Below, one piece after another: positions 3,623 through 63,935 of a stretch of DNA of 64,000 nucleotides. Numbering within the stretch: the first letter of the stretch is position 1; every line of letters starts with the position of its first letter. The notes beneath the pieces are model-generated. The model saw only the letters and a program-made list of their open reading frames with translations, did no database searches and had not been told where the DNA came from. The position numbers and the translations under genes are program-made. Origin of the DNA: Azolla caroliniana (taxonomy: Eukaryota; Plantae; Polypodiophyta); contig JBHGNT010000020.1 in assembly GCA_043228905.1 (NCBI GenBank), forward strand, positions 4,774,001 through 4,838,000, read 5' to 3'.

Positions 3623-4364
3623 TGTCGTAGTGTATTTCATACACTACGTGAAAAACTTATAAAGTACCGATTTAATAAATATGAATAAATAGTAGAAAAT
3701 ATTAAAATATATATAACATTCATAGGGCAAGATTCAAACCTTGCACCTCCATGTTAATAATGTAATGTCTTACCATTACACTAGCATTTCATTAGTGTTC
3801 AAAAGTAGATGTTCCACATAGAAAGGTTAGTTCACCTAGGATAAACTTTAGTTAAAAGAAAAACGCATGCTAAAAGAAAAAGCTACGCATGCACATCTAG
3901 CGTGCATGAACGCTATAGTTGATAATAATAATAATAACGCACAAGTTCGAAAAAGCATGATCACTTTAGATAAAGCATATAGTCTATCTATAGAAAAAGC
4001 ACAGAGTCTATAGTTAGAAAAGAAAAAGCATGGATTGCTAAGACTCTCTCATCTCTATATAAGGATGAGGAGCACAATGTAAGGGTGTGAAAAATATTTG
4101 GGAAATTGGATATATTTCCTAAAACACCACCAATTAATATAATATATTCGTGGGATTCACGAATTTGTGATAAAAATTGTCTCTTACTATCTAAATATTG
4201 ATTAAATACACTGAACTCGTGAGATTCACGAGATTAATAACTTACCTATCTTTCTAATAATCTATTCATAACTATAAACTTGTCTCAAATTCTTCCTCCT
4301 AGTCCAAAACCCCAGTGGTTCCCACCCGACTCACGCAAACGATCCGGAGCCGAAAGGCATGACA
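3623..4364 (+). mobile_element. Solo LTR with 4-bp TSD (ACGT)
   Basis: TGTCGTAG...GGCATGACA is flanked by ACGT at 3619-3622 and 4365-4368. It interrupts Gypsy pol and is homologous to the LTR ending at 56768. Confidence 0.9.
3723..3785 (-). promoter_or_regulatory. tRNA-like Pol III A/B box module inside LTR
   Basis: Minus strand TAGTGTAATGG (A box) and GGTTTGAATC (B box) 43 nt apart, with T-arm stem GCAAG/CTTGC. Confidence 0.65.
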
Positions 4365-39650: not shown

Positions 39651-40880
39651 TATCGCGGCGTGGCTCGCTGAGAAGCGTAGCGTTGCGTAGACAACAGACA
39701 TCCTGAAAGTGAGGAAGGAATCAATGGGATTATGGATAGAAGAGACGAAAGAGTAGAGATAGAGTAAATAGAGATCAACAAGATATGACAAGATAGGATA
39801 TAAAATGATATGTGAAGGAATAAAAGAAATTTATAATTATTTGATGAAAGAGTTACAAAAGTGATTGCGAGCATCGTTGAACCATCGAACTTTGTCTCAT
39901 AAGGTAATCACCCTTCTCTTTCTTGATAATAGGCCACAACAATCTTCACTTCAATATTTCGATGAAGATAAGACTTGAACCGCCTCCCTTTCTTTGAGAG
40001 TTGAGCACCGCGACCGTCAAGCTAGAGCTTCTATTCTATGTTCAACTTCTTTCCTTCTTCCTATTATATATAGTATCTCTTATGTAATATAATTCTATTT
40101 GATTGATATATCATACAATATAGTTCTTCAATTTCGATTTCTTCGATCCCTTGTGACCATTCTCCCTTCTCCTTTTATAGGGAAGAGATGGTCCTACATG
40201 TGGGCCATGTGGTGCACATGTAGAGAGGCTCTTGCATGTATGCTATATGGTGCACATGCAGAGAGGCTCTTGCATGTGTGCTATATGGTGCACATGTAGT
40301 ACATTTCATGGTTTAAACCATACAATACTACAACACATATATTCTATATACATCACAAGTATAGTCTAAATGGTAAGGTTTTAATGCCATAAGGTTGGGG
40401 TTATTGGTTCAAGTCCTCTTTTTCCCATGTAATATGCTATATGGTGTGCATGTAGTAGAGGACTTTTGCCCATATAATATGCTACATGGTGTGCATGTAG
40501 TATATTAGATGGTTTGGACTATAAAATACTACTTCAAATAAAACAACGCATATGATGTCTTATGTATTTATCTTATTGTAGACTTTTAATGTGAATCTTT
40601 TGTACTTCACGACATCCACCCCCTCTAGACCTACACATCCTCCGACATGTGCCACTATCTTTCATCTTCATGTTGATCTATTGGAGTATGGTGCATTTGA
40701 AGGCACTAAAATCTTCATCTTGACTTTATCCTTCAGCAGCTCCAACAATTGAGGTAATCGAGCTCTCGGTACTGCAATAGGTTTAAAATTCCAAGGAATA
40801 TGAGGGATAATAAATATTACCATTGGCATCACCACCTTTGGATCTACACAATCAATCTCCTCAAGGTCAAAGCATGCTAC
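39651..40880 (-). mobile_element. Gypsy 3' LTR (39651-40614) + PPT + RT N-terminal fragment
   Basis: Minus strand CTAGAGGGGGTGGA-TGTCGTGAAG. ORF 40668-40964 contains IPHIPWNFKPIAVPRA...PSNAPYSNR. Confidence 0.8.
40362..40420 (+). promoter_or_regulatory. tRNA-like A/B box module in LTR
   Basis: TAGTCTAAATGG at 40362 and GGTTCAAGTCC at 40406. Confidence 0.6.
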
Positions 40881-43800
40881 GGTGTACCAACTTTTGGCCA
40901 AAAATTTAGTACTAAATTGAGGAAGAAAATAGACATTAAAAATTGAAAATAAAACAATTATCATCTATTGAATGGTGTTCAATTTCAAATAACAAATTCA
41001 TTACATCACACTCGAATGTACAAAGATAATATACGTCCCACTCGAAATGTCCCAAGGCTGTATTTAATACATTAATTGTAACTTCATTCTCCTAGGTAGA
41101 GTTGTACGAAAGCACACCTGGAGAAGGTTTGGAATGTGATAGTTGGTCAGTCTCAGTCTCAGTCTCTCTCTCTCTCTCTTCTGTCTCGAAGTTGTCAGAT
41201 AGACAGAGGCAGAAAGTTCGAAAGACGACACATATCTATTACCTATCTCTCTCTTTCTCTCTCTCACTCCACCTTTGAATCTCTGTTTCTTTCTTTCTTT
41301 CTGTTTCTCTCTCTCACTCCACCTTCGATTCTCTGTTTCCCCGCCTAGTTGTTGTTGTGTTCCCCTCTGTGCCAGGTTCAATCTCTGTCTCTGTATATAC
41401 ATAGATTTCTGTTTCCCCGGATTGATGTTCTTGTTGTTGATTTTCTTTCCTTGTGTATGCTCGTTTGTCTCCTCTGCAACAGCCTCGTCAACAACCTCTT
41501 GCATATAGGTGATTTTGAAGGCTTGGTGTGCTCCGAAGGTGTGGTACCTCTGCCTTCGACCTTGGCTCCATCGGCCTCCAACTGGTATGTTATTGTTTTC
41601 GCTTTGTTTCCTATCCATTTGTTTTTAATTTGTATGTGTATGGGCATTTTTAGGTTTTGATTATTCATAGTCTATGTGTTGCATGCCCAACTGGTATGTT
41701 TTCATTTTCTTTGTGTTTCTTGTCTATCTATTTTTAATTTGTATGTGTTTGACATGGATGAGTTTTCTTCCGACTGTTTAGGGTGGTTGTGTGTTTGACA
41801 TGGTTTGTACATGCAACTTAGATGGAGTTGGCTATGATGAGTTGCTATGTTTTCGTTTTGTTGGTATGTTTTCGTTTTCTCTATGTTTCCCGTCTGTCTG
41901 TTTTTAATTTGTATGTGTTAGACATGGATGAGTTTTCTTCTGACTATTTAGGGTTTTTGTGTGTTTGACATGGCTTGTACATGCAATGTGATGATTTGCT
42001 ATGTGTTGATGGTAATTTGATGAGTTTTATTCTAGTACATGCATATTCATTCAACGAGAATAGTGATGACTAGGACAACGACGAGAAGGACACCCATAAA
42101 GAAGACATTGATGAAAGAGAAAGTGAAGACACCAGTGAAGGAAGAAAAAAGGACACCTCTCAAAGAAAGCAAGAAGACACCCACAAGAGAAAGGGTGATG
42201 AATTCATCAATATAGAGAAAGAAGATGTACCACTCCATCATTCAAGCCACACCTCTCGGATGGAGTTATTTCCTTCGAGCACGACCTGAAGTTTATCCTG
42301 AGCTGAAAGAGTGGTTGATAAAAACCTGGGGGTCAGCACATCCCGATACAAGGCGAGGATTCCACATAAGTGGATTGAGGAGGAAATATGTGAACTTATT
42401 GAAGACGAGATATGAACATGTTTATGATACAAATCAAATCTGTAACAATGAGGTGGGTATTGTTTTTGCACGTACATTTGCATGTGAAGTTCAGGGTGGC
42501 ATCGACGTAGATTGGGAAGATTTTAATCAGCATCGGTCAGAACATTATAAAGGGTCCTCCAGTACCAACACTGGCTTGAAGTCATTGGGAACCTCTCATG
42601 TGGATATTCCTTACAACACCTGTCCACCAAGTTCAATCTGCAAAGGTACGGGCCACAATGATTGAAAAGAATGAACAGATGATGGCCAGTTGCATAGCAT
42701 CTATGAGCTCAAGAATACAAGCACTACTTGTTGATTTGGAAGCAGTTAAATCAGCTGAGATACAGGCAGAAAAGACTACATATGAATGGATTGCATCGAC
42801 AATCCAAAATTCAAAAAGTGAGGTGTTGAAAGAGGAGTTGAAGAAAGAGCTAAACAATATGGGCACTCAATTAGGTTCACAGATGAGAGACCTTGATACT
42901 TGCAGGAATGCACATTCCGAAATAGATAATAAGTTATCAGCTTTAAAGTTGCATTCCGAGAACCTTGCGTGCTTGATGCAGGATTTAAAACAAAAAGGTT
43001 TTGAAACTTTGTGTCCATCTGTAATTGAGCACCCAAGTGGTATGGAAAGTACTATTATTAGTATAGCTATATCACGGTATTGGCTTTAAAAGTTATTTAT
43101 TTCTACTTCTGTGGTATGAATATCATATTAGCTAATATATTATAACTTGTGTTTGCAATATGCCAGGTGTATATTTTGTGACCTCGGATTCAAGTTGGAG
43201 GCATATGTTGTGATTACACCGTGCTTGCACATATATTATGTGCTATGTGCTAAGTATCATTTTGAGAAAGAGAATACATGTATGGACCATAAAACTACAA
43301 TTGCGGCTGAGTGGTACTATGCTTGGGGTTTAAAAGTACACCCGTACGGTATGTGCCTCTACTATTCTATTGTTTGTATTATATGATGTCAATTTACATT
43401 TGGATTAGAACTAGTGTATGCCACAATTCATACTTCAAATTTAGGAGAACAATGGATTAGTGTATCTCTAACAACTAATATGTGGAACCCTAATTATGTG
43501 GGTTAGTATTGGCAGTACTCTTAATATATAATTGGTATGTGTAGTTGAAGGGATATTTTCCAGAATTAGTACTAAAAGGGAACCGGGTACAACATCGTCC
43601 AATCTATATTGCAACTTGCCTAGTACTAGTTTAGTAGACACTATACTTGTAGTACACTGTTGACTGTTAGTATTGTTTGTGTAACTTGGGAATTAGTACT
43701 AATTATGTAATTTGGGAACAAGGTGTATAGTAAATTGCTGAATATTAGTACAGTTTGTGTAATTTGGAAATGAGGTGTGTCAAACACATATCACGTTTAG

Positions 43801-43899
43801 TACTAATACTATTCAAGATTAATACTGTTGGTGTAATTAGTACAAGTTATGTAATTAGGTGTGTAGAACACTTATCACGTTTAATATTACTTGTGTGCA

Positions 43900-44560
43900 A
43901 AATACCACGTTAGTACTAAAATCCAATCTACATTTGTTGGATTAGATGTTAGTCCAATCTATATTACAACGTGCCTAGTACTAGTGTTAGTACACACTAT
44001 ACTTGTACATTGTTGACGATTAGTACTTAGCGAGTAGTACATTGTTCATGATTAGTACTAGTTTTGTAAATTGGGAACTAAGTGAGTAGTACATTGCTCA
44101 TGATTAGTACTAGTTTTGTAATTTGGGAACTAAGTGAGTAGTACATTGTTCATGATTAGTAGTCCTTGAGTAATTTGGGAACTAAGTGAGTAGTGCATTG
44201 TGCATGATTAGTACTACTTGTGTAAATTGGGAACTAAGTGAGCAGTACATTGTTCATTATTAGTACTACTTCTGTTCCTTATTAGTACTAGTTCAGTAAT
44301 TTAGGAACTAAGTGAATAGTATATTGTTCAGGATTAGTACATTGTTCATGATTAGTACTATTTGTGTAATTTGGAAACTAAGTGAGTGGTACATTGTTCA
44401 TGATTAGTACTCCTTGTGTAATTTGACTAAGTTAGTAGTACATTGTTCATGATTAGTACTACTTGTGTAAATTGGGAACTAAGTGAGTAATACATTGTTC
44501 ACGATTAGTACTAGTTGTGTAATATGGGAACTAGGTGTAGCTTAATGAATTAGTAATGTA
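43900..44560. repeat. 52-bp AGTACT-rich tandem repeat in intron
   Basis: GTACATTGTTCATGATTAGTACT...GGGAACTAAGTGAGTA at 44037, 44089, 44141 and onward. Confidence 0.9.
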
Positions 44561-45864
44561 GCTCTTGTGACCTACATTGTATATTTTATATCACGGTACT
44601 AACCTTGAAGGTTTTTTGGTTTCTTGCAATGAATGTTGTAGTGTCAAGCAACTCCACGCAGGGAAGGTAATGGAACAACCGGCCCTTGTGCCTAAACCCT
44701 CGGTATCAGCTGAACATTCCAAGGTTCAGGGACCATCATTACCAATAACCTATGAGTTTTATGATGAAGATGAATGTATGAGAAGGGCCATTGGAGCAGT
44801 GGAACATATGCTTCTACAAACAAATTCCCCAAACTCCGGTCAACATCAAAACAATCCAAGTAACACAAATTTTGCCAACATATCTTAATTCTCATTTGAG
44901 AAAATGTTGAATGCCTAATTTCTTTAGAAATAGAGCCAACTAAGAAGAGGAATGTTGCAAGAATGTTGTATGGAAAGGGCAAGAAAGGCAAAGTTGAATG
45001 CAATGGTGAGTCATATATGTTCTCACCTATCCGGAGAGTTGTCAACCTAATGCATTGTCTAATACCATGTACTTGTGTTACTAGATGATGACGAAATGAT
45101 CTTTGGTGAGGGAGATACGAGTCCAAAACCTAATCGTGAAGACGAATTTATCACACTCCCAAGTACACGTCAAAAGCCGGTTTTTGAAAACAATGATTTA
45201 GATCATAACAACCCTATGATAGTGTTGCTTTTGGTGCATTCTATAGATCATAACAACCCTGTTGAGCACTTAGATGTTGTGGAGAAGATGACCAAGCCTA
45301 CCACTTGCAATGGGGTATCTACGGCTGTACAATATGACGATGTAACAATAGGTAAAAAAGTGGCTCTTAACCCTACGTTCATTGTTGTTGGTATGTTTGC
45401 AAACTTTTGAGTATGTGAATTGATACTAATATTCTTTGGAATCCCATTATTTAGGTTTACAAGAGCAGTCTGATTCCCAATTGCAATCAAATGAATCGGG
45501 AACTATATGGAGCACAAGTGCAAAGTTAGATTCTGGGATTAACCTTTGCACGGAGGCAGACTCTGGAAGCACATCTTCCACACATGAGGACTGTGAGAAA
45601 AACGAAGCATTCATATTTGAAGAGCAGTTGGCATGTACAAACAATAATTTGTCTAAAGAAGACCACGAGGAGTGTGGAAAGAATATGACAAGTACTGAAC
45701 AGAAGACTGATTGTACTGAGAATGTATCTGTAGTGTCTAAAGAATCCCATGAGGATTGTGGAAAGAACATTGCTAGTACTGAAGAGGAGCCTGATTGTAC
45801 TGAGAATGTGCTAGTAGTGTCTAAAGAATCCCATGAGGATTGTGGAAAGATCATCGTTACTAAT

Positions 45865-48800
45865 TGTTGAGAATCAAGCTCAACTTGGTCTAGTGTGTGA
45901 ACTCACCTTGAGAGTGAAGAGACACTCCAACGGTCAAGAGTCACCATTATGTCACCACTTTGTATTCTAGCATTTAGTATGAGTCATAGAATCATATTCT
46001 ATGACACATAACTTATAAGCTTTCACATTCTCCATGCTCCATGAGTCTTGTAGTTAATGAAGAGAGAGGGTGACTACATAAAGCACCCTCCTCCCACCTT
46101 GTATAATGTTGAGTCTTTCTCCTTTGTTAATATACTTTTAACCTTGCGTATACTGTGTGTGTGTGTGTGTGTGTGTGTCTCTCTCTCTCTATCTCACACA
46201 CACACACAGTTCACACCTATTCCGCTTCACAAGATTCCATCACTTGATTCTTTACATGGTATCAGAGTGATTTGGTAGCTCGATCTAGCCCATTTGCCTC
46301 ATCGTGATCGTGTGTTGTGCTCCACGCCAACGACCAAGAACCGGCTCATCGCTATCGTAGCTTTGCTACATAGCTCGCATTCAAAGAGAGAAGAAGAAGA
46401 AGAAGAAGAATCGACATAATGAATACTAAAATGGGGAGCGCTCTCCCTACCGAGAAGTTGGATCGAAAAAACTTCGCATCTTGGGAGTACAAGATGCACC
46501 AATACCTTGTCGGACAAGGCTTTTGGAGCTACATCAAAGGAGCGCATGAAGACCGACCCGCCGAAGTGGCTCCCGGATACGCAACATGGGAGCAAGCCGC
46601 GAGCCGTGTGATGTATTGTTTGGTGACATGTGTTCACGACCACATGCTCGGTTACATTCGAGAAGCCAAGATGCCGAAGGAAGTGTGGGAAAACCTACGA
46701 AAGATTTTCGCCGCCAACACGATTGCGAGGAAGCTTCAACTTTGCCAAGAGTTGAACAACATCCAACAAAGGGATATGTCCATCACGACATACACCTTGA
46801 AGATCAAGGAGCTTTGCAACTCGCTCGGCTCAATAAGCGTAAGTATAGATGATGATGAGATGGTACAAATATGCCTCGGCGGCCTCGCACCATGGTTCGG
46901 AGCGATGCGAACTGCCGTTCTAGCACGGGAGAAATCTCCGTCCTTCTTGGAGCTCCAATCAATGCTATTGGTCGAAGAAAACCACGTGCGTACAAGGAGC
47001 AATGAGTCGGAAGACCACATGCTCTACACGCACTCTAATGGAGGAAGAGGACGCGGACGAGCGAGGGTTAGATTCGGCCAAGGACAAGGCGGACGAGGTC
47101 CGACCTACAACAACAACTCCCAATTTCGGCCGCAAAACGGAGGCCAACGAGGAATGTTCGCAAGAAGGGGGAGCTTCCACTCCGGCTCGAGCCGTCAAAA
47201 CGCAACCGAATGCGGATATTGCGGAAAGCTCGGCCACCACGAAGAAGAGTGCCGAAAGAAGATGCGTGAATCGGCTTCCACAAGCCGACAACTCACGAAT
47301 TATGCACACAATTCTGACTACGAAGAGTATAGCGGAATGTATGGGCACAACTCCGACTACGAGGATCGTGGTGGAATGTACGCATACAACTCCGACCGTG
47401 GCGGAATGTTCATGATGAAACATAGAGCAAAGTCTATGTCGGCCTCTACCTCAACTAGTGCCCTCAATCCGGAGGACGTATGGTTTGTTGACTCCGGAGC
47501 CTCAAACCATATGACATCCCACAAAGAATGGTTTCTCGAACTTCGAGAGCCGGAGCGACCCGGTTATGTCGAAAGCGGAGATAACACTACACACACGATT
47601 CGGCACATCGGCAATGTTCCGTTCGGCGAAAGAGGTAAGCAAACATACATTAAAAATGTCTTGCATGTACCCACCATCACAAAGAATTTGGTCTCGGTCG
47701 GCCAAATGGTTGAGCAAGGGATGCAAGTACGATTCGACCAAGAAGGGTGCTTCATCGAAAAAGAAGGCCGAATCATCGCACGTGGAAGAAGAGAGGGCCG
47801 GATGTTCATTCTCGATTCGCACGAGATGAAATTTGCCATGTTCGCGAAAAGCACGAAAGTCGACTCCGACATAGAGCTATGGCATAAGCGAATTGGCCAC
47901 ATCAATTTGGCAAGCAACACCAACACCCATTTCCGAAGGAGCGGAATGTGAGCAAAGGCGTACTCGACATAATTCATTCCGATGTATGGGGTCTGGCTCA
48001 AACGGCAACATTCAGCGGATGCTGATATTACATGCTCTTCATCGACGACTTTTCTAGGCACACTTGGATCTACCCAATGTGGCAAAAGAGCGAAGTGTTC
48101 GGACACTTCCAAAATTTCAACAATGAAGTCGAGAAAGCCACGGGCCGACATGTACGATGCCTTCGATCGGATGGCAGCAAGGAGTACTTCTTGGACGATT
48201 TCACGACGTATCTCCGAAAGGAAGGAATTCGGCGAGAATTCACTTGCCGACACACTCCGCAACAAAATGGAGTAGCCGAGCGCAAAAATCGGCACATCCT
48301 CGAAGTAGCGCGGGCCATGATGAACGAGAAGCATATGCCCAAGTCATATTGGGCCGAAGCGGCAAATACGGCCGTCTACCTAATGAACCGGTGCACAACA
48401 TCCGGCATGCACGAGGTCACTCCGCACGAAAAAGATTCTTCGGAAAGAAGCCGAACCTATCACATGTTCGGATATTCGGCTCCATTGCGTACGTGCACAT
48501 CCCCGACGAGAAGCGTCAAAAGCTTGACCCGAAGTCGGAGAAATGTATCCTCATAGGATACTCACTGGAGCAAAAGGGGTACAAGTGCTACAAGCCCTCA
48601 ACTCAAAAATCTCGGGTAAGTCGAGACGTCATCTTTGATGAGTCCGCATCCTGGTACGCACCAGAGACAACTTCGACTCCGACCCCGCTCGACCCAGAAT
48701 CCACCGAACAAGAGATAGAGGATGAAGATCATCTTACGTGCATGTTCGAAGAAAGTCCGATCACGACCCGACTGAGCGGACCACAAGAGCTTTTGAGCGA

Positions 48801-51131
48801 TCAAAGCACATCACGGCCTAGCCCGAAGATGGACAAAGGCAAGGAGAAAATGGTGGAATATGAAGACGATCGCTTCGACGACGATGAATCGACTCACTCA
48901 CGCGACAGTGAGTTCGGCGGTTTCGAGGTACCAATCGGAGCTAAAACTCCGCCGATCCACCCATGAAAAGAACCCCGTAAGCCGATTCGGCTACAACGAT
49001 TATATGGCGTACCATTACGCCTTTATGATGAAGGTAGCGACAATACGGGAGCCGGAAACCTTTTCGGAAGCCGCGAAAGACCCGCGATGGATCAAAGCAA
49101 TGAACGAAGAGATGCAGGCACTACAGAAGAACGAGACGTGGGATCTCGTTTCCACCTCACCTCACAAAAAGGCGATCGGATGCAGATGGATCTACAAGGT
49201 GAAGTATAACGTCGATGGCTCCGTAAACCGCTACAAAGCTCGACTTGTAGCGAAAGGATACGCTCAGACACATGGCGTCGACTATGAAGAGACCTTTGCC
49301 CCGGTGGCAAAGATGATGACGGTGGGGACCGTAATTGCGATTGCCGTGGTGAAAGGGTGGCACATCCATCAAATGGACGTCAAGAACACCTTTCTACAAG
49401 GCGAATTAGAAGAGGAGGTGTACATGATCCAAGCACCTGGCTTCAACTCGAGCACTCATCCAAAAGCCGTATGCCGACTCAAGAAGCCACTCTACGGCCT
49501 CAAGAAAGCACCGCGTGCTTGGCATTCAAAGATAACGCAATATCTTCAACAAATCGGCTTCCGTATGTCAAAATCGGACAACTCCCTGTACATACGAAGC
49601 GATTCCACAAGTCTGATCATCATCATCTGATATGTGGATGACCTAGTCATTGGAGGTGAGCATCTCGTCGAAATCAATAAGGTCAAATCCCTCCTTTCCA
49701 ACAAGTTCGAGATGACGGACATGAAGGAGCTCCACTACTTCCTCGGCATCGAGGTAATTAGGACTCCGGCCGGAATCATGATCTCTCAACGGCACTACAT
49801 CCTCAACTTGTTATACAAGTTCGGGATGGCTGAGTGCAAATCCGCGGCAACCCCGCTCGATCGCAATCTCAAACTAGATGCGAACTCCGGCACCAAAGCG
49901 TGTGAGCCGACTCAGTACCGGCAACTCATCGGGAGTCTCATCTACCTCACACGATCACACGACCCGATCTCAGTTATCCGGTCGGTCTCCTTAGCCAATT
50001 CATGCAAACACCGCGTGATACTCACTTGGATTGCGCTAAGCGAGTTCTACGCTACGTGAGTGGCACAATGGATTGTGGCATCCTCTACAAGTCTGCGATG
50101 CCAATACGACTCGAGGGGTACACAAAGCCGATTGGGCCGGCTACGAAGCTAATAGAAGATCAACTTCCGGATTTGTTTTCTCCCTCAGCAGTGGAGCAAT
50201 ATCCTGGAGTAGCAAGAAGCAGCCTACTGTCGCTCTTTCGAGTACGGAGGCGGAATATAGGGGCGCAGTCGTAGCTGCGTGTGAAGCCGTATGGCTCAAG
50301 AGGATTTTGAAGGATCTGGGCATACCCATCAAGGATCCGACTTCCCTGTACTACGACAATATGAGCAATATCTATCTGGCTCGGAACCCGGTGTTCCACG
50401 AGTGGACAAAGCACATCGAAGTGCACTATCACTTCATCCGAGAGCGCATTCTGGTTGGTGATGTCGACCTACACCACATTAGCACCAATCTTCAAACGGC
50501 CGACATCTTCACTAAAGCCATAGGAGCCGACAAGCTATGGCAATTCATGACCGATCTCGAATTGATGATCCCTGACCTGCCAAGCTTGAGGGGGAGTACT
50601 AAAGACACTACGCAATAACGTGTGGATTCCGCAACCACGCAACGAAGCAGTGAAGAGCCGATCTACCGCGCAAAGCCGTGAAGAAAGACGCAAGCCGAAG
50701 CACAGACTTCGTAACTACGCACAACGCAAGCTGGAGCACGGATTCCGCAACTCCGCATAAAGCGAGTCGACGCGAACTCCAAAACGTGAGTTGAAGCGGA
50801 TTTCGGATACCGTCTGAAACCGACCCGACTTGAGCTTGAGGGGGCATGTTGAGAATTAAACTCAAACTGGTCTAGTGTGTGAACTCACCTTGAGAGTGAA
50901 GAGACACTCCAACGGTCAAGAGTCACCATTATGTCACCACTTTGTATTCTAGCATTTAGTATGAGTCATAGAATCATATTCTATGACACATAACTTATGA
51001 GCTTTCACATTCTCCATGCTCCATGAGTCTTGTAGTTAATGAAGAGAGAGGGTGACTACATAAAGCACCCTCCTCCCACCTTGTATAATGTTGAGTCTTT
51101 CTCCTTTGTTAATATACTTTTAACCTTGCGT

Positions 51132-51164
<33 letters not shown>

Positions 51165-51240
51165 CTCTCTCTCTATCTCACACACACACACAGTTCACAC
51201 CTATTCCGCTTCACAAGAATCCATCTCTTGATTCTTTACA
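45865..51240 (+). mobile_element. Near-intact Copia (youngest-looking in window)
   Basis: LTRs 45865-46256 and 50847-51240 are highly similar. TSD CTAAT, PBS TGGTATCAGAG at 46257, PPT GAGGGGGCA. Gag-PR ORF 46419-47951, then INT/RT/RH with a few frameshifts. Confidence 0.97.
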
Positions 51241-52539
51241 CTAATGAAGGGGAGCCTACTAGCATCACCCATGAGGACCAGGCAATAAAAACCACCCAAG
51301 AAGGGGAGCATGGTTCTCTTAAGAATGAGGTGATAGCCACCGTACAAGAGGAGTTGACCCAAGAAGGAGAGCACAGTGGTCTTAAGAATGAGGTGACTAT
51401 GACCAGCCAAGAGTTCGCCAGGAGTATTGTTGTAGCCCACATACATGAGCCTAATTGTACTGAGACTGAGCATACTAGCAACAACATGAGTACTAAAACA
51501 ACCCACATTCAGGAGATGAGTGATAATTTTTCTATCGACAGTACCTTTGTGGATGTGTGTACAAGCATTGTAGTTGCAAAAAACACAGTTGCTCTCTCAA
51601 GCGTGCCACTAGTACAAGGTGCCCGTGCATCCACGCCTGTCTCTGATGCCTCTAATGATGAAGTGCCACTTAGTCAGTTGATACCTAAAGGCTTTAAGAT
51701 AAAGAAGAATGTAAAATAAAAAAAAACTGGCACCAACAACAAGCGCATTACAAGATCAGCCAAATTGCCCTCTAGTGCCTGATTGTCTTTTGATTGTACT
51801 TGAACTTTAGTTGAATTGTTAGTGATGTGAGAAATTGAACTATTTGGTATACCAAAATACTGTCTCATTTATCTAAAATAGTTATACCAGTGTCTTTCGA
51901 TTGTACTTGAACTTTAGCTAAACTGTTAGTGATGTCTGAAATTGAACTATTTGGTATACCAAAATTCAGTAGTTATACCAGTGTGAAATTCTATATTGCC
52001 AATTGCAGAGAATGAAAATGTATTCTATTGTTAACTGTTGTAGTGTAATCTGAATTTCTATATTGCTAATTCTGAAATGATCTTTGGTGAGGGAGGTACA
52101 AATTTATCACACTCCCAGGTACACTCCCATGCAACCATGATTGTGTTGATTACAAATAAAATTCTATATTGTTAACTGAGATGTTATATACAGTTCGTTA
52201 TACCAGATGAAGATTTAGAAGACTGGTATATACTGTCATGCAACCGAGCTTTACATCAGATGTATGTATCCGTCTAACTGAGATACTTTGGGAGACTACT
52301 ATGTATTACTTAATACTTGCAATTCACATTGGGAGACTGTTATGTATTACTTAATACTTGCAATTGACATTAGTACTAAACTAATATGTATATTGATACT
52401 TGTGTTAGTACTAATATGTATATTGATACTTCGAAGTATGGTCTCCTTGAGTGCACATGGTTAGAGTTGAATAATGACTTGAGTGCACACAATAGAGACT
52501 TGATAGTTGAATAAGTTTGGGCCATATTTAGGCTACTAA

Positions 52540-52760
52540 GTATTTAAGACTTCACACCTTAAACCATAGAAACAAGCAACTCTATAATTACCATAAACAC
52601 TGACAATACAAAAGTATTGAAGACTTCACACCTTAAACCATGGAAACAAGCAACTCTATAATTACCATAAACACTGACAATACAAAAGTATTGAAGACTT
52701 CACACCTTAAACCATGGAAACAAGCAACTCTATAATTACCATAAACACTTACAATACAAG
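52540..52760. repeat. 74-bp tandem repeat x3 downstream of transposase A
   Basis: AGACTTCACACCTTAAACC at 52547, 52621 and 52695. Confidence 0.9.
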
Positions 52761-52933
52761 CTCAATAAATAGTCTCAATACATCAAATATATCGATTCAT
52801 AATACATAATAGAAGAAAGGAATTATATCGATTCATTTTTCAATCATCAAAATTAATATATCAATACATCAAATAGTGAACTACAAGTGGATGTTTTTCA
52901 GTTTTCTGGTACAATGTATTGATAGGGTGACTT

Positions 52934-55900
52934 TCAAGCATTAAATAGAGAGACCTCCCCTAATATGTGCTGATGAACCTCTTGGGGGACCTTGTAGACA
53001 GTGTTGTATCCCTTAACCTTGTGCTTTGCTCGAGTCATATTGAATTTGATCGCAAGAATGGCATCAACGTAGATTATTGCGATCGGTGCTTCTTTTAGTA
53101 ATGCATATGTGTTCTTGCACTGCAGCAACTTTGCATAATAGTTTCCATACACGACAGACTCACCAAGGTTGAAATTGTTGCCCCAGCCATCCCTCACCAC
53201 TTCTTTCAATAATGTTTTGCCTTGCTTGCACACCATAATGTAGTAGTCTTCTAAATCTTCATTCTAAGGAGATTTGAGCACTGCAAAATGATCTCCAACT
53301 TCCAATAAAACTGCCAAGTCTTGATGTTGGTTGTAGTATACAATATCATTTGAATGCACATCCTCTTCAATATCATCTTGTCGTTCAGGCTCAAGCTTCT
53401 GCAACTTCCAGGGCTCGACGATTGATAGGTTGATGCATTTATCCCAGGCTTCATCTATACACATGGAACAAAACCCTAATACACAATGGGTGTTGCATGT
53501 GCCTTTCACGGTTTTACAACCATATGATTTAGTACTATCAACCTCATCAGCGCGAACTTCAACAAACAATCAGTTCTTATCATCATTTGACATCTTCCAT
53601 GTTAGCCACTGCACAACATCATGTGCATTTTGTAACTTAGCACCATTATTATCCAACTGCTCACTTGTAAGGGCACGTTTGATCACAGCCCCCGCGCCAT
53701 CATGCTCTCCTTTTCCATGTCCAGACCCGAAGGAGTTCCATTGCATACGAATGTTGAATAAGGAGAAATACCTGCTTTTGTATCTTAGGTTTCCAACAAA
53801 ATTAGTACTATGTTGTCAATCGAGAGTACTACACATCCATTAATACTGATTTAGCACAAATACAAAACAAAGCATAGCACAACGTATCCATTGAGAACAC
53901 TCTACACTTATTAAAAGATAAATAGTACTATGTTGTCAACCATGTGAACTTGGCATCCATTAATACTAATTTAGTATAGATACAACACAAAGCATAGTAC
54001 AATGAATTCATGGAAAGCACTCTACATGAATTAACAAATAAATAGTACAAACTCTTCAATATCAGATAGTACTATGTTGCTGATGACGAGTACTTTACAT
54101 TCATTACTACTTTAGTACAGATACAATACACAATACAGTACAATGTGTCCACAGAGAACACAACCCTCCTTAGAAGATAATTAGTACTACAACACATGTA
54201 CTTTACATCCCCCAATAAATACTGATTTAGTATAGATACAACATATAGTACAATACAGTGTGTTCATGGAGAACACTCAGCATGGATTAATAGATAAGTA
54301 GTACGAACTCTTGAATATAAGACAGTACTATGAGTACAAGACATGTACTTTACATCTTCCGATAATTACTGATTTAATATAGATACAACACCAAGTACAA
54401 TACAGTGTGTTCATGGAGAACACTCAACATTAATTAATAGATAATTAGTACAAACTCTTCAATCTAGGACAACACTATGAGTAAAAGACATGTACTTCGG
54501 TCAATACTATGAGTACAAGTTGAGTAAATACTGATTTAGTACAGATACAACACACAACATAGTACAATGTGTCTATGGAGAACACTTCACATGGATTAAA
54601 AGATAATTAGTACAATTCTCTTAAGGATGGACAATACTATGAGTACAAGACGAGTACTTTACATCCTTCTGTAAACACAAAATAGTACAGATACAACACA
54701 CAACATAGTACAATGTGTCTATGGAGAACACTTCACATGGATTAAAAGATAATTAGTACAATTCTATTAAGGACAGACAATACTATGAGTACAAGACGAG
54801 TACTTTACATCCTTCTGTAAATACTGATTTAGTACAGATACAACACATAACATAGTACAATGTGTCTATGGAGAACATTTCACATGGATTAAAGATAATT
54901 AGTACAATTCTCTTAAGGACGGACAATACTATAGAGTACAATACGAGTAATTTACATTCTTTAGTAAATACTGATTTAGTAAAGATACAACACACAACAT
55001 AGTACACTTTGTCTATGGAGAACACTTCACATGGATTAAAAGATAATAAACACAGATTCACGTGATAGGATAGTACTATTTGATCAATCAAGAACAGTTA
55101 ACTTAGTTACAAACAAAATTAGTATGCATGCATCCATGTGAATAGTGCTGTGTTCGAATAGTTACAAACATAATTAGTATGTATCCATGTGAATAGTACT
55201 GTGTGTGAATAGTTACAAACATAATTAGTATGCATGCACTAACACAAGAATTACTTCCTTACACATTGCATGATAAGTACTAAACATATGGATTAAAAAT
55301 TACCTGACGATAAAGTAGAATGATCGTGCCGCCTTAAACTACGAGGCAACACCATCAGACCAAACCCAATGACCGTTAAAGGTTAACCCTAGAGACAATA
55401 AATTTGCATGGTGAAGCTTAAAACAACGTTGAACAAATAGTGTATCATGTTTTTTATCATCTGAAATGTAAAATATTGATTTCTTATATAACTCACCGTC
55501 TTGCCTCCAATAGCAAATATGTACAAGTATTGTACATTGATCATTGTACCAATGCATTGATTGAACCTCATTTTGAACTTTAAATGTATAGTTTTCTGCA
55601 AAGTCAATAACAGATACGATGACACCCGTTGGTAAGTTATTAATACATTCCTTGAACTGTGAATTTTGCCAATAACTCCGAAAGTTATGTGGAATGAACT
55701 CCCCAAGTTGTTTCTTAAATTCTGAGACAAGGGTAGGAGCACATGTCTCCTTATATACTTCCTTGATATGCTTAGTTACAAGTCCCTTGCCAATATTTTC
55801 AGTCACATACTCTAAATATTTCCATTTCACGATATGACTATTTCCCAAATCAAGCTCCTGCCTACAAAATAATGGTACCGGACAAACCTTACATGTTCTT

Positions 55901-56075
55901 AATAGACATGTACGACGATGCCACTCACATGATGGTTCTTTTTCACAAACACAAGACCTCCATAGCTCAGAAACGGATGCATAAGTCATGTTTCATGCAT
56001 TACACCTATTATCCTCCCCATTTGGTCTACAAACCTCACAAGTGCAGACACATAAGTCCCCGTGTATACCCTTAG
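52934..56075 (-). pseudogene. DDD transposase copy A (Sola2-like), 5'-truncated, intron 53772-55303
   Basis: Reads IDFAENY...WSDGVAS*FKAARSFYFIV-R|YFSLF...SFGSGHGKGEHDGAG after splicing a phase-2 GT-AG intron. Has premature stops. The C-terminus aligns with ORF 61954-63456. Confidence 0.85.
53790..55250. repeat. ~146-147-bp satellite filling the intron of transposase A
   Basis: ACAGATACAAC register at 54541, 54687, 54834 and 54981, with more degenerate copies leftward. Confidence 0.9.
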
Positions 56076-56079
56076 AACC

Positions 56080-58005
56080 AGACAAAGAAAACTAGCAAAC
56101 ACCGGATGAAGCAGAACCGGAAAGAGCCGGATGAAGAAGGCCGGTGAGAGTCTCTCACTGGATGAAGAGACATATTTGTAAATAGAAGAAAGTATAAAAA
56201 TATATATATTACATGCATAGGGCAAGATTCGAACCTCGCACCTCCATGTTAAAAATGTTAAGCCTTATCATTATACTAGCGTATTATGAATTTTAAAGTT
56301 ATACTAAACTTTATCCCATGTAAAATTTCTAGACATGCATGGTACAAAAAGTTCTTCATGCATAGACACTCGAGTTAAAAGAAAAGATGAGATAGAAAGC
56401 TAATCATGCACATGCAGTGTGCATGAAAAGTAAAGATAGGAAAAGCATGATGCTTGCATGTGATAAACTTAGACTCTTCCAACACTATATAAGGAAGAGA
56501 GAAAGATGTATGGAGGTTGTTGATTATTTTACAAGGGGATTAATATAATATAATCGTGGGATCCACGAGTTTGCTACCTATTTTACTCTCTTAATTTGAG
56601 TACTCACTAATACACTATACTCGTGGGATTCACGAGTTTTTCATATCTTTCTTTCTTACAATATATTTCATATTCTTAATTGCCTTAGAATTTTCTTTCC
56701 TCCTAGTCCAAAACCCTAGCGGTTCCCACCCAGCTCACGCAACGATCCGGAGCCGTAAGGCACGACACAAGTGGTGAACCCGACGTGAACACGGGTGGCA
56801 AGGAGATGGAAAATCAACCGGAGGCTAACAACATGATGATGATGTTCGAGCGGATTCTTCAAGAACAACGTGCAATGTCGGAGATAGCGGTGGTAGTAGA
56901 GCGGCTCATGCAACGGATCGGGCAATTCAACGGGAAGGACGTATCGCGCTATCTTCGGGACTACAAGGCGGACTGCAAGTGGCATCCTTCAACCGGGTGG
57001 CTACCGACGGGCTTCAAGCAAGTATCCACGGGCTACGACAACAAAATCCGACGTGGGAAGCATTTGAAGAGGCGCTAAAGACCACGTTCGCTATCGAGGA
57101 CTCCTCCAAGGCAACGCGGAGAGGATTTGAGGATTGGGTGGAAACGCCGGACAAGGGTATGAAGGTCCTCGATGTGTTTTCGGCATTTGAAAGTCAGTTC
57201 GGGAGGTTGTCTGTGAGAGATCAAGCTATCCTCACACCGGACAAAGTTATCATGTTCTTACGAGCCGTAGACGTCTGGGACTGGAAGGATCTTGGAGTGC
57301 TTCTAGAGGACACGACTACCGAGAGTGGCCTCACCAAAACATGGGAAAGCGTGCGGGATATCGTCGCGCGATACACAAAGAGGGGACAATGGCTTGCCAA
57401 CGAAGAAAAGAGGGTTTCGGAACCGATTCCGAAACCGAGATCCGGATCGGAAGACCATCAACCGCGGGCTCGAGAAGCTACGACTGAGAAGGGAATCGAC
57501 GCAACTATGGTGGAGCAGTTGCTGAAGGAGATGGAGAATCTAAAATTCGCGATGGTGAAGAAGTCGGATGACCGTCCCACAAGTTCCAAGTATATGGACT
57601 GTCGATGCATATGGTACGATAGCACCGAACATGATCGGAGGGATTGCGACGAGCACAAGGAAGCGCTACGACAAGATCTTATCTACCACGAGGGAAATCG
57701 GATTCATTCGATGGACTCTTGGAAGCCGCTCCGACCGAACTTCTAAAAAGGCGGCATGAAGAAGGTCCTAGAGGAGGAAATAATGGCGAAGAGCAATTAC
57801 ACGACAACCGCGGGAATACGTGTCGGGGAGTCATCGGGAGCAAAGGTGTCTTTTTGGCCGGAAGTGCTAGAAAGCACCAAGAAAACCGACTCTAACGAGA
57901 TCCGAAGCACCGCCCGCGGAAGGCATCCAGGAAGCTACGGGATGGGAGTGCCCCGTGGATAAGAATAGTGTGTTTGCTTTATGCCAATTGCATGAAGTGT
58001 ATGTG
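56080..58005 (+). mobile_element. Gypsy 5' LTR (to 56768), tRNA-Trp PBS and gag, truncated
   Basis: The LTR ends GGCACGACA, followed by TGGTGAACCCGACGTGA, complementary to the plant tRNA-Trp 3' end. Gag FNGKDVSRYLRDY...C-x2-(C)-x4-H-x4-C. The LTR left edge is uncertain. Confidence 0.85.
56218..56281 (-). promoter_or_regulatory. tRNA-like A/B box module in LTR
   Basis: Minus strand TAGTATAATGA...GCGAGGTTCGAATCTTGC. Confidence 0.65.
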
Positions 58006-58354
58006 GGTGGAAGCATACGAGTGGAAACAATTAGCTATGTCCTTGACATAGCTAATTAGCTATGCAAAAAGCTACCATTGATAAATAGTCATTTTAGTAA
58101 AAAGCCATCATTAATAAATTAAGTATGCAAAAAACTACCATTGAAAATACTAGAGTGTTTTAATTACATATGTAAATGAGTGCCATAAATGTGCAACATA
58201 AATTGATGTGTGCACCATAAATGTGTACCATAAATTATATATCGAATTCCTAGGTCCATTATGCATGATCCTTTGCCACATCACGTAGGCCATCTCTAGT
58301 TGAGTACTGTGGGTTAGTTGCTACCACTGTTGCTAAACCCTATCGAGTCCACCT

Positions 58355-59150
58355 GCCGCCACTCTACACTGAGGGGCCGCTACTGTGCGTTCCAAGCATC
58401 ATCAAAGAGCTGCTCAATCTGACGGGGTTCTCTTCTCTGTGACACTCTACACTCAGGGGCCACTACTGTGCATTCCAAGCATCATCAAAGAGCTGTTCAA
58501 TCTGACGGGGTTCTCTTCTCTGTGCCACTCTACACTCAGGGGCCATTACTGTGCGTTCCAAGCATCATCAAAGAGCTGTTCAATCTGAGGGGGTTCTCTT
58601 CTCTGTGCCACTCTACACTCAGGGGCCATTACTGTGCGTTCCAAGCATCATCAAAGAGCTGTTCAATCTGAGGGGGTTCTCTTCTCTGTGCCACTCTACA
58701 CTCAAGGGCCGCTGCTGTGCGTTCCAAGCATCATCAAAGAGCTGTTCAATCTGACGGGGTTCTCTTCTCTTTGCCACTCTACACCCAGGGGTTGCTACTG
58801 TGCGTTCCAAGCATAATCAAAGAGCTATTCAATCTGACGGGGTTCTCTTCTCTTTTCCACTCTCACTCAGGGGCCGCTACTGTGCGTTTCAAGCATCATT
58901 GGTAACTGTTCAATCTGACGGGGTTCTCTTCTCTATGCCACTCTATTCTCAAGTGCCTTCTATGTGCGTTTCAAGCATCATCGGTAACTGTTCAATCTGA
59001 CGGGGTTCTCTCCTCCATTGCCATCATTCTATACTCAGTTGCCACTACTGTCCAGTTCCGGATTGCTTCCACATTTCGATTTGACGGAGTTCACTCATCC
59101 AACGGCAACATTCTACACTCAGTTGTTGCCATTGGTCGGTCTTGGATCGC
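58355..59150. repeat. 83-bp tandem array (~8 good copies, then degenerate) upstream of transposase B
   Basis: Near-identical ORF starts at 58385, 58468, 58551, 58634, 58717 and 58800. Confidence 0.95.
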
Positions 59151-59346
59151 CTCCTCAACTGTTGGATCCAACGGAGTGAAATCCTCTACTGTTCGGTCTT
59201 GGATTGCAATAACTTTTCTATCTATTGATTATCTTGTGTATTGTTGTGTCTAATCTTGTGTATTGTGTGGAATATTTTTGTGTATTGTTGTTGCCCATAG
59301 CCATCTTTAATACTTGTTTTTTTTTCTGGAAATTTAGGGTTTTAAC

Positions 59347-62300
59347 ATGTCTAGCCAAATGGAAGGGGAAGAAGGGTGTTTAGAATTACCCCTCAATGAT
59401 CATAAGGATAGGGATGATGTTATCAGGACACAACAAGCCATACGAAACTATTGGGCAGAAAAAAAAAGGAAACATCGTCAATTGTTGAAGGATACGAAAG
59501 CCACACTCAGTAAAGGTAAGGATAGTTTAGCTGAGAATGTAAGTAATGCGACTACCATCATAGAGAGAAAGGTTGTAGACTATTTCAATGTTCAAACCAA
59601 GCACATCAGCAATGAAGAAAAGAAGGTAGTACTTTATGGAATATGTAATGATCCATCGATAAAGGACTTAGTTGATTGTGATGGTCTTAATGCAAACATA
59701 TCATCTATTTTAGTAAATAATCTTCGTAATAGTTTCGTATCCATGAGCAGGTCAGAAGATGATCTTGTCTTAAAAAGGTCTAGTCTAATGATGTTACTTA
59801 ATAGTGATGTTGACGATATAAACATCAGTGAGCTATCTAAGGTAATTGGTGTTAGTAGAAAAACAGTGTACAATACAATGAACCGTATAATTTCCTCGGG
59901 TGAAGGAACTAGTCTACTAAAGCTAACTACAAGATGTAAGCCAATGACACCCATAACATTTGAAATCAAGGATGTAATCACAATGTTTTGGACTAATGAG
60001 AGTAGGGTTTCACCCAATAAAAAGGATTTATGCAGGAAACGTGTTGGAAGAAATCAATACGAGGAGCATCCCATTCATATTCTTGATGTACCTCAGGTAT
60101 TTACATTTATCTCAACATTTGTTTTGACTCTACTCGGAAAGTTAATTAGCTCAGTTAGCAGAAAAGCTAATTAGCTTATCAGTTACATTTACCTCAGTTA
60201 GCTAATAGGATCGCTACTACATAGGTAACTAGCTACTCTCAATAGTTACTACCATGATAGCTAATTAGCTATTCTCAATACCTCATTTAGGTACTACCAG
60301 ATAATTAGCTGTACTGCTAGCTAGTTAGCTATTTCGTTATTACTAGCTAATTAGCTACTAGGAAAGCTAATTAGCTACCATGATAGCTAATTAGCTACTA
60401 TGATAGCTACTACATAGGTAACTGGCTACTCTCAATAGCTACTACCATGATAGCTAATTAGCTATTCTCAATACCTCATTTAGGTACTACCAGATAATTA
60501 GCTGTACTGCTAGCTAGTTAGCTATTTCGTTATTACTAGCTAATTAGCTACTAGGAAAGCTAATTAGCTACCATGATAGCTAATTAGCTACTATGATAGC
60601 TACTACATAGGTAACTGGCTACTCTCAATAGCTACTACCATGATAGCTAATTAGCTATTCTCAATACCTCATTTAGGTACTACCAGATAATTAGTTGTAC
60701 TGGAAGCTAGTTAGCTATCATGGTAGCTAGTTTGTTATTTCGTTATTACCAGCTAATTAGCTACTAGGAAAGCTAATTAGCTACCATGATAGCTAATTAG
60801 CTTACTAGGATAGCTAATTAGCCACCGTGATAGCTAATTAGCTACTAGACCAGCTAATTTGCTACCATGATAGCTAATTAGTTAGGATAGCTAATTAGCC
60901 ACCATGATAGCTAATTAGCTACTAGACCAGCTAATTAGCTACCATGATAGCTAATTAGTTACTAGGACAGCTAATTAGCCACCATGATAGCTAATTAGCT
61001 ACTAGACCAGCTAATTAGCTACCATGATAGCTAATTAGTTACTAGGAAAGCTAATTAGCCACCATTATAGCTAATTAGCTACTAGACCAGCTAATTAGCT
61101 ACCATGATAGCTAATTAGCTACTAGACCAGCTAATTAGCTACCATTATAGCTAATTAGTTACTAGGAAAGCTAATTAGCCACCATGATAGCTAATTAGTT
61201 ACTAGGAAAGCTAATTAGCCACCATGATAGCTAATTAGCTACTAGAGCAGCTAATTAGCTACCATGATAGCTAATTAGCTACTAGGACAACTAATTAGCT
61301 ACTAGGACAGCTAATTAGCTACCATGATAGCTAATTAGCTACTACGACAGCTAATTAGCTACCATGATAGCTAATTAGCTACTAGAATAGCTAATTAGCT
61401 ACCATGATAGCTAATTAGCTACTACGACAGCTAATTAACTACCATGATAGCTAATTAGCTACTAGGACAACTAATTAGCTACTAGGACAGCTAATTAGCT
61501 ACCATGATAGCTAATTAGCTACTAGAATAGCTAACTAGCTACTAGAATAGCTAATTAGCTACTAGGATAGTTAGCTAGTTACGAGAATAACTAATTCCCC
61601 TTTATTACGCAGGTCGATTTATTTATTAGGTTCAAACGAATGCATCCAACTATCAAAGTTCAACTACGAACATTCGAGTCTCTTAAGCCACACTTTGTGA
61701 GACGCTTAAAGGATCGATACACATGTTGTTGCATTTACCATGTACAGATGGGTTTTCTGAAGGACTCTGTTAATCTACTACGTCACCATAGCGCATCCCT
61801 AACTAATACAGTTTGCAAATGTGGGTGCCCAATCTGTCGATCAAGCCCGCAAGAGGAGTGTAAATCATCTGAGCACGTTATCTCTTCCATGAGTTATTTA
61901 TTAGATTCAATATTGTGTCCGAGAGAAACTGACGCTATCTTCCATATTCATAAATGTGTCATGGGTTTATATGTCAAGATTGTGGCCCTACTAGATTTAG
62001 GTGGTGTCCAAATGAATTGAGTAGTGAAATATTGATCTCTGTGAAGTTATTTGAGTCAGTGAACACCAATTTCGAAGGAAATGTGTGTAAAAGAAAGGAT
62101 CTAGTTCGGAAGATGCTTAAACCAAGGGATTTGGTGTCTCTGTTTGTAGTATCTCTAGGAAAGTTCATTAAACACAACTTCATTTATTCATGGCAGGCCC
62201 ATCAGTTTAAGACTTGCATATCTGATTTCCCAAATGATGTAGTAGTCTCAGTAGTAGATTTCGCAGAGAATTATACTTTCAAGCAGCAGAATGAAATTCA

Positions 62301-63456
62301 ATCTATGCATTGGTGTTCAGTTCAGGTAACCATTTTTGTGCACATAACATATTTTCGAGTTTCAGGTGATGTTAAAAAAGTAATTCATTTCTTTATTTCC
62401 GATGATAAGAAGCATGATACCTTGTTCGTCCAACACTGTTTTAAGTTACATTGGCAGTGGTTATTAGCTCAACGTTTGGAGCTTACTCAACATTGGGTCT
62501 GGTCTGACGGAGCTGCGTCACAATTCAAGGCTCGACGTCCATTTTATTTTGTGGGGAGGTATCCTACTATAACAGGTTTGGAGATGAGATGGAATTTTTT
62601 TGGGTCTGGCCATGGTAAAGGTGAACATGATGGTGCAGGGGCTGTTATAAAGCGGGCACTTACCCATGAACAACTAAAGACAGATGGTGTGCACATGAAT
62701 TGTGCATCACATTTAGTTGAATTTTTAAGAACAAATATGTCAACGAGTGCCACAGGTGTTTATTCCTCGCAAGTCCGAGATATCAAACGTGAATTTTGGG
62801 AAGTGAAGATAGATGAAGTAAATAGGGAGAAGACCTGGGAGTGCCAAGGAATTCCCGAATTGCGATCTCTGCATGCTGTTCGCGGTTATTCCAGGTTGGA
62901 TGGTCATTGTATTGCGGTTAGAGAATTGACTTGTTTTTGCTTCCATTGTGTGCAGGGAAATTGGAGATATTGTCTAAACAAAGCATACATTCAGAATTGG
63001 GAGTATCACACTCTGAATGATAAGGAAGCAGTTGATGGAGAAACAGGGCAGAATGCTGACTTCACATATGAGGGACTTGGAGATACTTTGAGTGATGTCC
63101 TGAACGTTGGGGATAACTTCGCTGTAAATGCTGAAGAAGGCAATTCAGAGGGTGCTGATTTCTATATATTAAAGTGCACGGTTAGTAAACAGTGTGCAAG
63201 GCAGAATATTGTAGATGCATGGGGAAATTTTGTATCTGCCGGGACATTCTACATCGAAGGCATTTTTTATGCAAAACTAGATGACTACGAATATGTGTAC
63301 AGGCTGTTAGAAGACAAACCAGCGGCGTATATGTACTCTCATTTGGTCAGATGCATCAACGTCCCAATGTCAGAATACAATAGCTGCTCCGGTTTATACA
63401 CTGTTGGTGCTAATGTGTATGAATGTATTTACAATAGTATGCCATGGAATTTGTAG
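59347..63456 (+). CDS. DDD transposase copy B (Sola2-like), ~863 aa after splicing and repair of one 2-bp frameshift
   Basis: Exon 1 59347-60096 (HTH-like ISELSKVIGVSRKTVY). Phase-0 GT-AG intron 60097-61612. Exon 2 has FESLKP...TCCCIYH, Cys clusters, DFAENY, SDGAASQFK and HGKGEHDG. Frameshift at ~61970. Confidence 0.85.
60140..61595. repeat. Palindromic AGCTAATTAGCT minisatellite (21-bp unit; ~193-bp higher-order repeat x3) filling the intron
   Basis: Alternating CTACCATGATAGCTAATTAGC / CTACTAGACCAGCTAATTAGC units. TACATAGGTAAC register at 60218, 60411 and 60604. Confidence 0.95.
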
Positions 63457-63935
63457 CTACAAGTAGCACTTACCATGTTCTCTTGTAAAACAAACATGTA
63501 TTTCGCGAAAACAGATCAATAAATTCGTTTGGAATCAATTTCTTGTATACAGTCTGCTTTCTGTGCTTCTTTCTCAATAAAATCATGTCTTTTTTGTTAA
63601 GTTTTAAGTTATAAGTTATAGCGAAATAGTCATTAGTAGCTAATTAGCTGTACAAATGCAGCTAATTAGCTGTACAAATGTATTTACAATAGTATGCCAT
63701 GGAATTTGTAGCTACAAGTAGCACTTACCATGTTCTCTTGTAAAACAAACATGTATTTCGCGAAAACAGATCAATAATTCGTTTGGAATCAATTTCTTGT
63801 ATACAGTCTGCTTTCTGTGCTTCTTTCTCAATAAAATCATGTCTTTTTTGTTAAGTTTTAAGTTATAAGTTATAGCGAAATAGTCATCAGTAGCTAATTA
63901 GCTGTACAAATGCAGCTAATTAGCTGTCAATAGCT
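63424..63935 (+). repeat. ~255-bp tandem duplication of transposase B stop codon + 3' UTR
   Basis: TGTATTTACAATAGTATGCCATGGAATTTGTAG at 63424 and 63679, each followed by AATAAA. Confidence 0.9.

Follow-up and report, generated by a model that had tools for sequence, protein, structure and literature searches.

Why do two related transposases, lying side by side in a plant genome, each carry an intron of about 1.5 kb filled with tandem repeats, at different positions and with different repeat units? The question is posed by 64,000 nucleotides of Azolla caroliniana (assembly GCA_043228905.1, contig JBHGNT010000020.1, positions 4,774,001 to 4,838,000 of the forward strand), hereafter called the window, which hold two such elements, A and B. 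Judged from their sequence, A and B belong to two families of Sola2-type plant transposons, cut-and-paste elements with three catalytic aspartates (DDD), and each copy is broken. The motif-bearing arrays in their introns are a real, family-wide feature and repeat, with differences, a design known from an unrelated superfamily. On balance, we lean towards the view that these arrays would act as multivalent docking sites for a DNA-binding protein that the element itself encodes and that would keep its own family unsilenced, much as VANC proteins do for VANDAL transposons.

Both introns hold up in sequence and predate their arrays

The transposases were compared with 80 loci homologous to them (loci are labeled L, homologous proteins P), and tandem repeats were called with Tandem Repeats Finder (TRF). 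The parts of the two genes, in window coordinates, are as follows.

59347 to 60096, plus strand: transposase B exon with a helix-turn-helix (HTH)-like segment (Pfam HTH_11, E 6.5e-5, below the curated cut-off)
60097 to 61612, plus strand: B intron 1, phase 0, 1516 nt, GT..AG, between LDVPQ and VDLF, with 20-bp units around the palindrome AGCTAATTAGCT
61613 to 63456, plus strand: transposase B main exon, with a Cys-rich region, the DDD aspartate codons at 62257, 62506, and 62629, and a BAH-like C terminus at about 63070 to 63430
55304 to 56082, minus strand: transposase A middle exon, with the first two aspartates and a premature TAG at 55339 to 55341, broken off at 56082; 94% to P0101
53772 to 55303, minus strand: A intron 2, phase 2, 1532 nt, GT..AG, with 146- to 147-bp (also 120- and 51-bp) units rich in GTACT/AGTAC (TRF)
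52934 to 53771, minus strand: transposase A last exon, with the third aspartate, a BAH-like C terminus, stops, and deletions; 88% to P0114

Both introns were confirmed with the borders, lengths, and phases that an earlier note on this stretch had given them: their splice sites are intact, and in-silico splicing of 60097 to 61612 and of 53772 to 55303 restores the reading frames. A's intron separates the SDG and HDG aspartates, the second and third of the catalytic triad, and B is indeed uninterrupted at that codon. The genes themselves are broken, A by the TAG that follows its second aspartate, by further stops, and by its end at 56082, and B by a 2-nt frameshift near 61968 that is not found in other copies.

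Junction reads, which the earlier note had proposed as a check, were looked for among contigs from four runs presumed to be RNA, which may include DNA; three of them also cover intron DNA, and X22 gave no contig here. The exact predicted joint of B (60074 to 61610) occurs in one X18 contig (depth 3.96), the species label of which is E and not label A of the best-matching runs, while no joint for A was found among the matches listed. The X18 joint could also stem from an intron-less DNA copy. One contig of X19, a run that may contain DNA, crosses the A acceptor unspliced. In DNA runs, depth over the arrays is of about the same order as over the exons, depth not being a measure of copy number.

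An intron lies at B's codon in all 21 plant-type loci that show both sides (17 with intact GT..AG), seven of which are A-lineage copies, and 22 distant loci, the outgroup in the tree, are open there. Truncation of A had been thought to hide whether it once shared B's intron; relatives 87 to 97% identical to the A exon carry an intron of 89 to 92 nt at this site. The second site could be called in 59 of the 80 loci (21 could not), 8 of 18 "broken" calls having been removed by eye as pattern artifacts or ambiguous, and is interrupted in the same phase in 10 of the 59, namely, eight A-lineage copies, L007, and L019. In the A lineage, intron 1 measures 89 to 92 nt and intron 2 927 to 1532 nt; L007 is reversed, with 1594 nt in intron 1 and about 130 nt in intron 2. 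An array can evidently sit in either intron, and its place is unchanged in L001 and L044, both sister copies. Between B and L001, 29 of the 483 codons compared differ silently and 16 non-silently. The picture of introns made of satellite has the order reversed: the introns predate the arrays, which grew inside them. Homologous open reading frames (ORFs) P0090, P0093, P0096, P0098, P0104, P0106, P0113, P0118, and P0115 start or stop at GHGKG. This suggests that other subfamilies have one more intron site, directly ahead of the third aspartate.

Intron motifs differ between families

The repeated unit in B is 20 bp long in 46 of 63 spacings, and not a 21-mer as first described, within a higher-order repeat of 193 bp. 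The unit in A, taken at first for a palindromic satellite, is rich in GTACT/AGTAC and is not itself a palindrome; GTACTA/TAGTAC reaches 19.6 per kb in A's intron versus 0.5 per kb left of the element. Relatives have other words in their introns, ACCATTAA in L002, GTGGTAATTA in L003, ATGCTAA in L005, AGGTGAAA in L007, and AGTACCAA in L008 and L009, with GTACTA throughout the A lineage, where it is the top 6-mer in five of five arrays. Among the 146-bp unit of A, the 52-bp unit in the intron of its second gene, and the 41- and 19-bp units of L055, L065, and L080, BLAST aligns nothing more than 23 nt where the intron begins. The motif evidently persists while the repeat units around it are replaced.

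The motifs also recur elsewhere in their own elements. The top five 7-mers of each intron were scored in the 3' flanks and 5' ends of the elements compared, and diagonal and off-diagonal values were compared by permutation. Intron motifs reached 10.1 per kb in their own 3' flank versus 1.3 in those of others (n = 20, p = 0.0004) and 15.0 in their own 5' end versus 2.4 in others (n = 8, p = 0.0016). Copies lie within 70 bp of the termini, and their orientation follows the axis of the element in two oppositely transcribed genes (GTACTAA to TTAGTAC, 9:1 and 18:4). In B, L005, L007, L008, and L009 the motifs are self-complementary or form inverted pairs. AGCTAATTAGCT itself occurs 40 times in the window, always at 58050 or beyond, versus 0.01 expected, and among the 80 loci only in L001.

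58005 to 58070, plus strand: B 5' terminus, GGGTGGAAGCAT, then the inverted pair GCTATGTC-N3-GACATAGC, then AGCTAATTAGCT at 58050
58358 to 59015, plus strand: 83-bp tandem array in the B 5' region, motif-free
63638 to 63925, plus strand: four AGCTAATTAGCT copies in the B 3' flank, inside a 254-bp duplication, with no terminus pattern on the minus strand
40864 to 40915, minus strand: A 3' terminus, an inverted copy of the family 5' end with TTAGTACTAA at 40906, matching the 5' ends L044:2072, L053:1355, and L055:506
52370 to 52415, no strand assigned: a pair of TTAGTACTAA copies where the 3' ends of ORF2 (the second gene of A) and transposase A face each other, not an element end

The claim that the motif recurs near both ends of each element therefore stands in part: the copies at about 40907 and 58050 are close to true termini (40864 and 58005), and those at 52370 to 52415 and 63638 to 63930 belong to 3' flanks. 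A DNA contig of run X2 fuses the intron array of B to its 3' array (60806 to 63632); it may represent a non-autonomous derivative with an internal deletion, or similar repeats may have been joined wrongly.

Inside the elements, unit lengths gather around multiples of 10.25 bp (Rayleigh p = 0.0005 at 10.3 for 59 arrays; after hand deduplication to 43 arrays, jitter p = 0.0001), and arrays outside elements (n = 19/18) show no such clustering. The longer units measure 146, 147, 168, 173, 177, 184, 187, and 193 bp.

Sola2 identity, termini, and C-terminal domain

Compared by eye with the published alignment (PMC3627910, Additional file 10), A and B show the same series as Sola2: C-C-x-x-H, DF(A/S)ENY..Q.E.QS.HW, ISDD..HD, SDG.A.Q(F/Y)K, and W.FF...HGK...DG.G, together with short terminal inverted repeats. 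The core model (predicted local distance difference test [pLDDT] 79.5) has an RNase H/integrase fold, with best matches to integrase (Z 9.7, root mean square deviation [rmsd] 3.2 over 146 residues) and Mos1 (Z 9.2). Named relatives come from Calypogeia, Riccia, Klebsormidium, Cryptomeria, and Taxus; no relative was found in the viral contigs searched.

Sola2 termini begin with 5'-GRG. The terminus GGGT(C/G/A)RWAGCA is present at the 5' end of B (58005) and at eight loci, and an inverted copy ends A at 40864, so that A spans at least 40864 to 56082; this 3' end mirrors the 5' ends of relatives but starts with AGG, and each locus shows one end only. The shared GGGT start led us to drop termini of the CACTA/Chapaev type, which begin with CAC. 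Self-BLAST of the loci longer than 4.5 kb gave no convincing long terminal inverted repeats (TIRs), the hits in L075 and L068 being other AT-rich repeats. The 4-mers next to the ends are mostly AT-rich and few fit AWWT, with one end visible per copy; a 4-bp AT-rich target site duplication is described for Sola2 (PMC3627910). About 30 bp inside the 5' end lies an inverted pair, ATGTC-N3-GACA(T/A) (window 58034 to 58052, L002:85-105, L003:1820-1844, L007:70-88), the flanks of which change together, GCT..AGC in B and L002 and GTG..CAC in L003 and L007, a pairing that departs from the transposase tree.

The C-terminal domain (63070 to 63430, plus strand; 52937 to 53330, minus strand) is present also in intron-less outgroup loci. 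Its model (pLDDT 89.7) retrieved BAH-containing chains at structural ranks 1 to 17 (Z 5.1 to 6.8, rmsd 2.8 to 4.5 over 79 to 96 residues), the first non-BAH chain having a Z of 4.9. Foldseek gave a weak E of 0.059 at best, and no Pfam or PDB sequence match was found. As modeled, the domain is a possible histone reader.

Element A carries a second gene

ORF2 is convergent with transposase A and comprises an N-terminal domain, a coiled coil, a RING-like exon, and an acidic repeat tail, a layout of conserved domain plus variable region with peptide repeats.

42216 to 43086, plus strand: ORF2 conserved N-terminal domain and coiled coil, 85% identical to P0129
43168 to 43347, plus strand: putative ORF2 RING-like exon, E 3e-9 to P0131 421-478 (pairwise)
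43349 to 44610, plus strand: predicted ORF2 intron, GT..AG, with a 52-bp AGTACT-rich array at 44025 to 44537 (sequence and TRF)
45865 to 51240, plus strand: presumed Copia long terminal repeat (LTR) retrotransposon inserted in an ORF2 exon, with the 5-bp target duplication CTAAT and LTRs 98% identical over 300 nt

The predicted ORF2 intron has 26.6 GTACTA/TAGTAC per kb. Minus-strand ORFs follow the transposase in L003, L005, L012, L015, L016, L017, L034, and L059, and ORF2 aligns weakly (15 to 23%) to those of L012, L016, L017, and L034. A profile search with ORF2 returned neither a solved structure nor any relative that is named or annotated in Pfam. In L005 the convergent ORF (2767-3972, minus strand) contains a phosphatase domain of the NIF/FCP1 type (Pfam PF03031, E 8e-15).

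What the arrays may do

If the arrays are docking sites, units that contain the motif would be amplified by slippage or unequal exchange, array growth would be tolerated in introns and flanks alone, where it does no harm to coding sequence, selection would keep the motif, and the bound protein would keep its own family unsilenced, by analogy with VANC and VANDAL. The earlier note had suggested element-specific arrays bound by the transposase. The specificity across relatives, the persistence of the motif as units are replaced, and the copies no more than 70 bp from termini are consistent with the first part of that suggestion; as to the second, the binder may be ORF2. We slightly favor ORF2 over the HTH of the transposase, because in the known case of intronic arrays an accessory protein is the binder and because the HTH helix does not predict the motif: the co-variation that had been anticipated was not visible on inspection of 18 exon-1 sequences.

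Several observations weigh against docking sites. B, L002, and L003 have different motifs with a near-identical HTH helix, and A and L020 share AGTACTA despite different helices. ORF2 cuts the other way as well, having no recognizable DNA-binding domain: Pfam gave no match to the VANC domains DUF1985/DUF287 or to any DNA-binding family, and any second gene of B lies, with its 3' end, outside the window. In the motif-sharing test, only 3 of 20 motifs scored best in their own flank and 4 of 20 flanks had their own motif as the best, sister families tied, the 5' region of A was borrowed from L044, and the signal came from B, L002, L003, L005, L008, L009, and A, with none in about 12 more distant loci; kinship gives shared motifs, and a motif would spread through copying inside a single element as well. 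The phasing test was devised after the periods had been seen, 5 of 23 families oppose it, and its control set is small. Conservation of the palindrome in B (0.86 to 1.0) is weak evidence of selection, because the spacer differences are shared, alternating variants. Finally, the 83-bp array of B and a 74-bp array in A are motif-free, which means that repeats arise in these elements even where the motif is absent.

The strongest rival is neutral internal duplication, in which slippage and template switching start at short AT-rich palindromes while the gap left by excision is repaired, and the word spreads through all non-coding parts of an element and drifts between families unbound. The motif-free arrays, the self-complementary or inverted-pair motifs, the many distant loci without motif sharing, and the X2 contig, which joins the two arrays of B as microhomology would, all speak for it. 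It does not predict the helical phasing, and it sits poorly with motif copies within 70 bp of termini and with one hexamer topping unalignable units of 146, 52, 41, and 19 bp; we regard it as a serious though unlikely account.

Less probable still is chromatin organization by host factors or nucleosome positioning, with the BAH-like tail reading nucleosomes and specificity arising by descent. The phasing, best at 10.25 bp, the long units of 146 to 193 bp (146 to 147 and 168 to 193 bp), and the BAH domains in the top 17 structural matches fit this proposal, but the low Z and Foldseek values and the missing sequence match weaken it, and a host factor leaves a different word per family unexplained.

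A role in RNA, with hairpins or branch-point decoys throttling transposase splicing, is very improbable. The B array folds far better than shuffles (z -14.8), several motifs contain CTAAY, and the X19 contig is unspliced; yet the centroid fold of B is empty and the z score is what any palindrome array would give, the A array shows no tendency to fold (z +0.62), CTAAY has no sense bias in B, L002, L003, L005, or L007, X19 may hold DNA, motifs stand at termini outside introns, and their orientation tracks the element and not the transcript, so that the hairpin regulator once suggested finds little room. Foreign insertion into the introns, by a miniature inverted-repeat transposable element, a Helitron, or a free satellite, would suit a window that is a nest of insertions but is the least credible account, since AGCTAATTAGCT is absent outside B in the 64 kb and present among the 80 loci only in L001, the array has the same place in L001 and L044, and the motif is part of the element's terminus.

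Surroundings of the elements

56083 to 58004, plus strand: fragment between A and B, which we take to be Gypsy-like, with part of an LTR and a gag-like ORF; host of the B insertion

Positions 1 to 40000 of the window hold decayed Gypsy- and Copia-like retrotransposon pieces, densely nested, and a small AGTACT cluster lies near 15126 to 15180.

Known systems and significance

VANC proteins bind family-specific motifs of 8 to 9 bp that are tandemly repeated in the introns, intergenic regions, and terminal regions of VANDAL elements (PMC5735166), and VANDAL motifs of 6 to 12 bp are amplified in tandem repeats that change fast (PMC5735166; PMC10398659). The A and B clades, though not the roughly 12 distant loci, resemble them in the placement of family-specific motifs, and A also in an accessory gene with a conserved domain plus a repeat-rich, variable part. 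They differ in superfamily, VANDAL being Arabidopsis Mutator-like elements with a DUF1985/DUF287 accessory protein and the transposase here being of Sola2 type, and in motifs that are helically phased and in many cases palindromes. Terminal motif clusters are the means by which TnpA of Spm, a CACTA element, and the transposase of AtMu1 activate cognate copies, according to bioRxiv 10.64898/2026.08.24.746577, the main text of which does not contain the word "Sola". There too, motif clusters are family-specific and follow element phylogeny, and either an accessory protein with an HTH or the transposase itself can bind them; binding and demethylation occur at termini, whereas most motif copies here are intronic. 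Tetris/TIR-220, one of several transposon-derived satellites, shares the internal tandem repeats of a DNA transposon but has them in its TIRs and as free kb-size arrays (PMC4079207).

Published Sola2 elements are not known to have the two GT-AG introns, the motif arrays, or the BAH-like C-terminal domain described here, nor a convergent gene like that of A. The literature searched held no Sola2 report of intron arrays, a BAH tail, or a convergent second gene, an absence that is weakly shown; the only two-gene Sola2 found there carries Fanzor.

A bolder and doubtful proposal is that plant Sola2 elements independently evolved a VANC-like, sequence-specific anti-silencing arms race, in which an unrelated accessory protein would read helically phased, often palindromic, family-specific arrays in conserved transposase introns and the BAH-like tail would read histone marks. 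If true, targeted epigenetic activation would gain a new protein family, one from outside the flowering plants. Array growth inside old introns is one way in which introns in large plant genomes grow, and at least six motif-family pairs (AGCTAATTAGCT, GTACTA, ACCATTAA, GTGGTAATTA, AGTACCAA, and AGGTGAAA) offer themselves for direct tests of protein-motif co-evolution. Sequence-specific anti-silencing has so far been shown for a few Arabidopsis and maize elements; a like DNA layout in an unrelated superfamily, which has relatives in liverworts, conifers, and Klebsormidium, would point to a solution that recurs.

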